Source of the DNA: a virus
Lineage: Duplodnaviria; Heunggongvirae; Uroviricota; Caudoviricetes
Length of the DNA stretch: 6,654 nt
IMG/VR virus record: IMGVR_UViG_2713896788_000026
Strand: one strand, 5' to 3'
In this document: piece after piece, positions 4,138-4,162 of the stretch
How the letters are laid out: each line of letters starts with the position of its first letter
Numbering within the stretch: the first letter of the stretch is position 1
The notes under the pieces: model-generated
The model's database searches: none
What the model saw: only the letters and a program-made list of their open reading frames with translations
Told to the model about the DNA's origin: nothing
Made by a program: the position numbers and the translations under genes

Positions 4138-4162
4138 AAATAAAAAAACCGCCGCAGCGGTT
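4138..4162 (-). terminator. Putative rho-independent terminator or attenuator between the terminase large subunit and capsid genes
   Basis: On the minus strand: stem AACCGC, loop UGCG, stem GCGGUU, then UUUUUAUUU, immediately followed by the AGGAGG ribosome-binding site of the capsid gene. The stem is short (6 bp), so strength is uncertain. Confidence 0.35.

Follow-up and report, generated by a model that had tools for sequence, protein, structure and literature searches.

In E. coli, the rpsU-dnaG and rplL-rpoB terminators act as internal attenuators of their operons, and in phage T7 the terminator T-phi follows the major capsid gene. The late operon of lambdoid phages is transcribed from pR', and RNA polymerase modified by the antiterminator Q passes intrinsic terminators. 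In Stx phages, late gene expression depends on Q to antiterminate transcription from pR' (PMC7547250); PMC8191782 covers processive antitermination more broadly. Intra-operon terminators have been predicted in the late operon of the P22-like phage L, where partial termination and the stopping of un-antiterminated transcription are candidate roles (PMC8022706).

The element studied here is a hairpin followed by a U-tract, located between the gene of the large terminase subunit (terL) and the capsid gene of a lambdoid phage. Like T-phi, the hairpin after lambda gene E and a second hairpin found after the capsid gene in our own sequence, it is a stable stem-loop beside a capsid gene, plausibly shaping the abundance of capsid mRNA; those three, however, are found on the 3' side of the capsid gene and raise the level of its mRNA relative to the downstream genes, whereas the studied element lies 5'. 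With rpsU-dnaG and rplL-rpoB it has in common that an intrinsic terminator separates neighbouring genes of the same operon, but these terminators lower the expression of the downstream gene as stoichiometry requires, whereas here the downstream gene is the one needed most and the polymerase is expected to be terminator resistant. The closest likeness is with the intra-operon terminators of phages L and lambda, which also consist of a hairpin and a U-tract on the coding strand, in an intergenic position and inside one long pR' operon under a Q-type antiterminator. The present element differs from them in its position, adjoining the capsid ribosome-binding site between terL and the capsid gene and not at the end of the procapsid module or after a moron, and in its conservation with the head module across Enterobacterales, in a betaproteobacterium and in a Pseudomonas phage. 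Finally, it resembles tR' (the terminator of the lambda 6S RNA and of StxS in Stx phages; PMC7547250) as an intrinsic terminator expected to be overridden by Q-modified polymerase; tR', however, lies a few hundred nucleotides from pR', is the regulatory switch itself and yields a stable short RNA (StxS), whereas in phage 2851 the element lies about 9 kb further downstream, away from promoters, and is not known to yield an RNA of its own.

RESULTS

Gene context

The window, that is, the whole stretch of 6,654 nucleotides analysed here, matched 94 phage records over its full length with 90-99% identity. All 94 are long-tailed lambdoid phages of E. coli, mostly Stx1a-, Stx2a- or Stx2c-converting, and the best match is phage 2851 (98.2% identity). 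Every long open reading frame (ORF) of the window lies on the minus strand, as judged from the ORF list and from Pfam domains (Table 1), and homologues of the protease-capsid fusion occur in many Enterobacterales at 73-100% identity. In phage 2851, one strand carries, in this order, Q, three tRNAs, stx2AB, the lysis genes, an HNH-type gene, terS, terL, the protease-capsid gene, the portal gene, and the head-tail and tail genes, and because of this gene order we take the window to be a piece of a classical lambdoid late operon. The late-operon and Q context was read from records about 98% identical to the window, the Q gene itself lying outside it.

Table 1. Features of the terL-capsid junction and its surroundings; positions refer to the window unless another sequence is named
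Feature	Position	Strand	Basis or remark
terS, small terminase subunit, 187 aa	5846..6409	-	Pfam Terminase_2, E 4.5e-08; named terS in phage 2851
terL, large terminase subunit, 553 aa	4188..5849	-	Pfam TerL_ATPase and TerL_nuclease; ORF list
terL stop TAA	4190-4188	-	Direct reading
Spacer from terL stop to hairpin, 24 nt	4164..4187	-	Varies among relatives
Terminator-type hairpin GAACCGC-UGCG-GCGGUUU	4146..4163	-	6 Watson-Crick pairs and one G-U pair, 4-nt loop
Hairpin 5' arm AACCGC	4162-4157	-
Hairpin loop TGCG	4156-4153	-
Hairpin 3' arm GCGGTT	4152-4147	-
U-tract UUUUUAUUUU adjoining the stem	4137..4146	-	7-U run when two U of the 3' arm are counted
Capsid Shine-Dalgarno AGGAGG	4130..4135	-	5 nt ahead of the GTG start (4124)
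S78 prohead protease/HK97-type major capsid protein fusion gene, 645 aa, GTG start	2187..4124	-	Pfam Peptidase_S78 and Phage_capsid
Second hairpin ACGGGAGGC-GUGC-GCCUCCCGU	2151..2172	-	9-bp G+C stem just past the capsid stop; no U-tract in E. coli
Portal gene	start 1975	-
Twin cassette	phage 2851 (L001) 9635-9649	-	Before the major tail protein gene
Twin-like cassette	Salmonella relative (L116) 16027-16040	+	Before the major tail protein gene; similar

Anatomy of the hairpin and U-tract

An earlier note on this DNA had described a terminator-like hairpin with a U-tract between terL and the capsid gene. The structure was recovered by direct reading, by a pattern scan and by an inverted-repeat search, and the position (4138-4162), 6-bp stem, UGCG loop and UUUUUAUUU reported in that note proved accurate to the base. 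The stem can be extended by a seventh pair, the wobble G4163-U4146, which brings its composition to four G-C, two A-U and one G-U pairs around the 4-nt loop. On the minus strand, the bases read T from 4146 to 4142, A at 4141, T from 4140 to 4137 and C at 4136; counted from the 3' arm of the hairpin, the U-tract is UUUUUUUAUUUU. The strand continues after the hairpin as UUUUAUUUUC (also read as UUUUUAUUUUC), with AGGAGG next and then GTG, and the element does adjoin the capsid Shine-Dalgarno sequence as first described, AGGAGG (4135-4130) lying directly past the U-tract. The whole intergenic gap measures 63 nt, and the element sits on its coding strand, the same strand as all four genes.

Two consequences may be drawn from this layout. 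Because 24 nt separate the terL stop codon from the hairpin, a ribosome at that stop would not be expected to cover it. Moreover, the hairpin would be a one-way signal because the plus strand has no T run past it, for which reason a bidirectional terminator was rejected. We also considered a programmed -1 frameshift at an in-frame U UUU UUC in the last terL codons (4191-4200, minus strand), and discarded it, given that the -1 frame stops after nine codons and that the hairpin is more than 25 nt away from the slippery run. The heptamer, which encodes a conserved Phe-Phe, is judged coincidental.

Hairpin stability and chance expectation

Folding showed the stem to be stable at 37 °C: the isolated hairpin has a free energy of -10.2 kcal/mol with seven pairs and of -8.9 kcal/mol with six, and it is present in both the minimum free energy and the centroid structures of a 76-nt context. 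With four G-C pairs and about -10 kcal/mol, the E. coli hairpin is only moderately stable. The locus displays the features by which an intrinsic terminator is recognised, namely, a G+C-rich stem (about 5-14 pairs) with a short loop (3-8 nt), a U-tract at the base of the stem, stability at 37 °C, and an appropriate strand and position past a stop codon, clear of the ribosome footprint.

Such features could in principle arise by chance, as an inverted repeat beside a T-rich ribosome-binding leader with no function of its own. A loose terminator pattern matched six sites in the window against 7.3 expected and, since it is not enriched, a loose match alone means little; the fold of the 76-nt context has a z-score of only -1.5. 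On the other side, the pattern scan ranked the hairpin as the best minus-strand site, and the inverted-repeat search recovered its arms independently. Under a strict criterion (a stem of at least 6 pairs, at least 4 G-C pairs and at least 8 T among the next 10 nt), the terL-capsid hairpin was the sole match on both strands, against an average of 0.003 per 6.65-kb strand in 300 dinucleotide-preserving shuffles, a chance estimate that is post hoc because the threshold was picked after the site had been seen. In our judgement, the conservation of its position in distant relatives is a stronger argument against chance than these statistics, as position and structure are kept across genera with variable loops and the cassette has diverged less than the coding DNA on either side. 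We therefore regard a chance origin as extremely unlikely.

Conservation of the cassette

The 241-nt junction is present in 1256 of 5426 complete E. coli genomes, in up to seven copies per genome and always with at least 95% identity. Among 84 near-identical loci, the differences within the element concern the loop (UGCG or UCCG), the length of the U-tract (6, 7 or 8 T) and an A-to-G change in the 5' arm, which turns an A-U pair into a G-U pair; several more substitutions are located upstream, in the spacer.

Distant relatives were sampled by scanning one genome per species, with an alignment of capsid homologues as the query. A hairpin and a U-tract were found between the terL stop and GGAG(G) in each of the 20 Enterobacterales relatives examined, which have capsids of 52-77% identity (Enterobacter, Kluyvera, Buttiauxella, Citrobacter, Atlantibacter, Phytobacter, Kosakonia, Pantoea, Rouxiella, Erwinia, Entomohabitans, Proteus, Arsenophonus, and Phlomobacter). 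A betaproteobacterial prophage (Diaphorobacter, capsid 51% identical) also carries both parts, and five alphaproteobacterial relatives (capsid 47-49%) have short terL-capsid gaps without a hairpin.

All 22 aligned sequences fold into the hairpin individually, with free energies from -7.5 to -14.3 kcal/mol, and the stems of the relatives contain five or six G-C pairs. The alignment holds 10 different loop sequences, and its stem is 93.5% paired, a value that drops to 33-55% when the 3' partners are slid by one to three columns. Changes on both sides were seen at three stem pairs, and no shuffle equalled the observed pairing or covariation score, although the relatedness of the sequences inflates these shuffle statistics and the number of independent compensatory events is about three. 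Since the loops vary and compensatory changes occur in the stem, we argue that an RNA structure is being kept, and a DNA operator was rejected on this ground.

At least five U adjoin the stem in 21 of the 22 aligned relatives, and T48-T51 of the alignment are invariant in all of them. GGAG(G) is kept at a constant distance from the hairpin, and the tail sequence UUUUUUCGUUUC(A/U)GGAGG is kept across genera and into the Pseudomonas phage PAJU2. The least conserved part of the intergenic region is the 24-nt spacer; in Proteus and Phlomobacter, the hairpin begins 0-2 nt past the terL stop, where a terminating ribosome could disturb its folding.

PAJU2 is a lambdoid phage with a 48% identical capsid, and it carries AGCCCGC-CUAGA-GCGGGCU followed by UUCUCGUUUCUGGAG, a weaker version of the U-tract, at the equivalent position. 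Its 37-nt cassette is 74-77% identical to the cassettes of Citrobacter, Kluyvera, and Salmonella, compared with 52-60% for the flanking coding DNA. The Moraxella phage Mcat7 has kept the hairpin at the terL-capsid position, with no U-tract, and in a Burkholderia phage with the same gene order the terL and protease genes overlap and there is no hairpin. From these comparisons, we consider that the hairpin and U-run form a real, conserved element of the intrinsic-terminator type.

Some E. coli records are organised differently around the junction. In strain ECA64 (NZ_OZ392456, locus L082, about 480-3000), ISEc23, an insertion sequence of the IS66 family, lies directly 5' of the hairpin and parts the hairpin and the capsid gene from terL; a mosaic junction suspected just 5' of the hairpin, from one E. 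coli match breaking there, was in fact this insertion and marks no module boundary. One contig encodes a 1079-aa ORF (protein P0001) that joins the TerL ATPase, S78 protease, and capsid domains; its capsid part is 100% identical to that of the window, and the terL-capsid spacer with the hairpin is presumably deleted or read through. In RefSeq chromosomes such as NZ_CP054232, NZ_CP124351, NZ_CP145139, NZ_CP123332, NZ_CM168047, and the phage record PV189401, the junction falls at 1570-1810 and position 1 is the first base of the prophage terL, which is probably an artefact of an automatic start-point reorientation that picked the prophage terL on the chromosome.

Promoters and small RNAs

The element could also attenuate transcription in part, or mark where a transcript confined to terS and terL really ends; the capsid gene and those downstream would then depend on an internal promoter or on the polymerase that reads through. 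Its anatomy is terminator-like, and partial termination is among the possible roles of intra-operon terminators listed in the phage L genome paper (PMC8022706). Nevertheless, a consensus scan, which weak or activator-dependent promoters would escape, found no sigma-70-like promoter with 9 of 12 matches on the minus strand of the whole window, and no site with 8 of 12 matches or an extended -10 element on the minus strand from 4125 to 4800. The proposal that terS and terL have a transcript of their own and that the capsid gene has an internal promoter in the terL 3' region thus found no support. In addition, conservation does not extend to the 24-nt spacer upstream of the hairpin, read-through is what the Q context leads one to expect, and attenuation before the capsid gene would be counter-productive because each virion takes hundreds of copies of the capsid protein, the terminase being required only catalytically. 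We consider an attenuator or a separate transcript distinctly unlikely.

A long U tail past a terminator hairpin is the type of 3' end bound by Hfq. The element might then serve the end of an RNA, either by protecting the 3' end of a terS-terL message after processing or by terminating an Hfq-binding small RNA (sRNA) derived from the terL 3' UTR. The lambdoid prophages of enterohemorrhagic E. coli are indeed rich in Hfq-bound sRNAs, including the multicopy HnrS within prophage late genes (PMC13502914; PMC4104026 Table S2). We mapped HnrS (EcOnc10-12) onto the genome of strain Sakai from the coordinates in Table S2 of Tree et al. 2014 (PMC4104026) and rejected its identity with the element, as HnrS/EcOnc10 is located in Sp12 on the opposite strand, about 0.9 kb upstream of terS and outside the window. 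No orphan Hfq peak out of the 64 tabulated for Sakai falls at a terL-capsid junction; those followed to their loci lie in the tail region (EcOnc22-24) or in Sp4, a prophage whose head module is different (EcOnc35 and EcOnc52). This is a weak negative, because the data come from cells without prophage induction. Furthermore, the segment upstream of the terminator that would provide a conserved single-stranded seed is the 24-nt spacer, which is variable among relatives. A search of the window with the Rfam 15 covariance models gave no match at the hairpin, the sole match at E<=1 being an unrelated snoRNA model at 4870-4913. On this evidence, a role at the end of a processed message or of an sRNA is highly unlikely.

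Of note, HnrS/EcOnc10 occupies positions 2234239-2234287 of Sakai NC_002695.2 (L113), at the 3' end of a small plus-strand ORF in the interval between the lysis genes and terS, antisense to the late operon. In the window, a plus-strand promoter-like site is present at 6502-6531.

The Q antiterminator and the stoichiometry question

A Q-type antiterminator gene was found about 4-10 kb upstream, on the same strand, in all four hairpin-bearing lineages inspected at longer range: phage 2851, the Salmonella relative (L116, PF03589), the Pantoea relative (L118, PF06530), and PAJU2, in whose record genes for cI, Cro, O, P, NinB, and NinG are annotated as well. The occurrence of two different Q families is as expected if the terminator is generic. 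The hairpin-less Burkholderia phage has its own T7-like RNA polymerase and no annotated Q, so that the association of the hairpin with Q comprises four positive lineages and one negative lineage.

This context bears on a paradox raised when the hairpin was first described, that is, that a terminator at this place would lower capsid relative to terminase, the opposite of the usual stoichiometry. The paradox dissolves in a lambdoid late operon with a Q gene upstream on the same strand, because Q-loaded polymerase ignores terminators and the element would be harmful only if the polymerase obeyed it. The suspicion that the element was no simple constitutive terminator is probably right. On the phage 2851 late strand, hairpins resembling terminators also occupy other intergenic positions, namely past the tRNAs, stx2B and L, ahead of the major tail gene, and in the gap separating I from J, and lambda has such hairpins after E, after J, and after lom; reading through signals of this kind must therefore be routine. 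For strain Sakai, a Term-seq dataset exists (GSE143631; PMC7547250), as do dRNA-seq data and Hfq and RNase E cross-linking data (GSE46118 and GSE77463). Judging by the spacing, the Sp12 copy of the hairpin would be expected about 25-50 nt past terL (ECs_2251, 2231128-2232789, minus strand).

A twin cassette and a hairpin after the capsid gene

In phage 2851, a near-identical cassette directly precedes the major tail protein gene: CCCGC-CGCG-GCGGG is followed by UUUUUUAUUAUC, AGGAGG, and the start codon. A similar one stands before the major tail gene of the Salmonella relative (Table 1), and the Pantoea relative (L118) has no such cassette ahead of its own. In the window, the capsid gene is bracketed by the studied hairpin and by the second hairpin just past its stop codon, the equivalent of which in relatives is GGCGGGG-loop-CCCCGCC.

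These observations bring in the main alternative explanation, in which the hairpin, U-tract, and AGGAGG would be a leader cassette for the translation or stability of the most abundant virion proteins, its selected function lying in the read-through mRNA and any terminator activity being incidental or secondary. The hairpin would prevent upstream coding RNA from base-pairing with the ribosome-binding site and could serve as a protective 5' stem-loop after processing, while the U-rich tract would be an unstructured, S1-friendly enhancer ahead of a perfect Shine-Dalgarno sequence. Translation initiation is said to be the main level at which lambda late genes are adjusted in expression relative to one another (Sampson et al. 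1988), and 5' stem-loops reportedly stabilise E. coli mRNAs, according to work by Emory et al. in 1992. The fixed spacing of hairpin, U/C-rich tract, and GGAG(G), with a tail sequence retained as far as PAJU2, speaks for a leader function, as do the units before the major tail genes of phage 2851 and of the Salmonella relative, and the Mcat7 hairpin that has no U-tract; the conserved, stable hairpin past the capsid gene would fit a segmental stabilisation of the mRNA. However, neither insulation nor stabilisation calls for five or more consecutive U exactly at the base of the stem, which is a hallmark of intrinsic terminators, and the lack of a cassette before the major tail gene of the Pantoea relative also argues against it. 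We view a primary role in the leader as possible but doubtful.

The post-capsid hairpin may protect the 3' end of the capsid mRNA. It sits between a strong AAGGAGG (2173-2179) and the ATG (2140-2142) of the next small ORF, and because of this placement it may bring the Shine-Dalgarno sequence and the start codon together.

In the interval between the capsid and portal genes, a 73-aa ORF (MAKIRYLQGTH..., 1921-2142, minus strand) overlaps the portal start in another frame. Its 5' end is conserved at the DNA level across genera, and a small gene is found at the same position in PAJU2, in the Burkholderia phage, and in Mcat7. In the adjoining portal region (1-449 and 200-1975, minus strand), the portal ORF itself ends at position 200 in the window (591 aa), compared with 860 aa in the annotation of phage 2851; the first 563 residues match the phage 2851 protein in one frame (1975-287) and the remainder in another (213-1). 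As the C-terminal part of the phage 2851 portal consists of tandem repeats of about 54 aa, the portal of the window differs in repeat copy number and/or contains a frameshift, and a tandem repeat search of the portal 3' region within the window scored nothing. RefSeq marks several portal copies as frameshifted, and the Salmonella and Pantoea relatives have two separate genes, of about 450 and 347 aa, at the portal position.

DISCUSSION

On balance, we lean towards the view that the element is a genuine Rho-independent terminator inside the Q-antiterminated late operon of a lambdoid prophage, acting only on polymerase without Q. A true terminator is favoured because the most invariant feature of the alignment is the U run that starts exactly at the base of the stem. 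On unmodified polymerase, the hairpin would form in the nascent RNA, and the polymerase would pause on the U-tract and be released. Polymerase devoid of Q could be found in the lysogen or in the time before Q accumulates, or could come from stray or moron promoters upstream, and its termination at the element would leave the strongly translated protease-capsid gene and all the downstream genes silent. During lytic growth, the polymerase would be loaded with Q at pR', become terminator resistant, and read through the element, so that the ratio of capsid to terminase would not fall on its account. The amount of capsid would be determined after transcription, by the perfect AGGAGG in its U-rich leader and probably also by the stable hairpin past the capsid gene. 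Termination without Q and read-through with Q are both what we infer from the structure of the element and from the phages that carry it.

One point does not sit easily with this view, in that a stop for stray polymerase does not obviously need a conserved U/C-rich tail or a fixed spacing to the Shine-Dalgarno sequence. The recurrence of the cassette before the major tail gene suggests at least as much a role tied to the downstream gene. A terminator and a leader function are, in fact, compatible, and a terminator placed before the strongest ribosome-binding sites stands where silencing matters most. We may imagine, as an unlikely extension, that the hairpin, U-tract, and AGGAGG form a conserved, dual "gate and booster" before the major capsid and major tail genes, which encode the two most abundant virion proteins, first as an antitermination-dependent barrier and then, in the mRNA, as an insulator, U-rich enhancer, or 5' stabiliser contributing to the high yield of capsid and tail tube, selected since the divergence of the enterobacterial and Pseudomonas lambdoid phages.

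If the terminator reading that we prefer is true, nothing new is needed to explain the locus, which would be one more intrinsic terminator ignored by Q-loaded polymerase. Elements of this kind are already known in lambdoid phages, and the interest that remains lies in the unusually deep conservation of this one and in its twin ahead of the major tail gene. The value of the element is that of a clean, conserved, and widespread test case, carried by roughly one in four complete E. coli genomes, in as many as seven copies per genome, and its twin cassette, together with a conservation above that of the flanking coding DNA, makes it a good candidate for a mutational test. The question that could be addressed in this way is the purpose of intra-operon terminators in phage late operons, which may be to silence costly structural genes in lysogens, to attenuate transcription partially, or to shape mRNA ends and translation.
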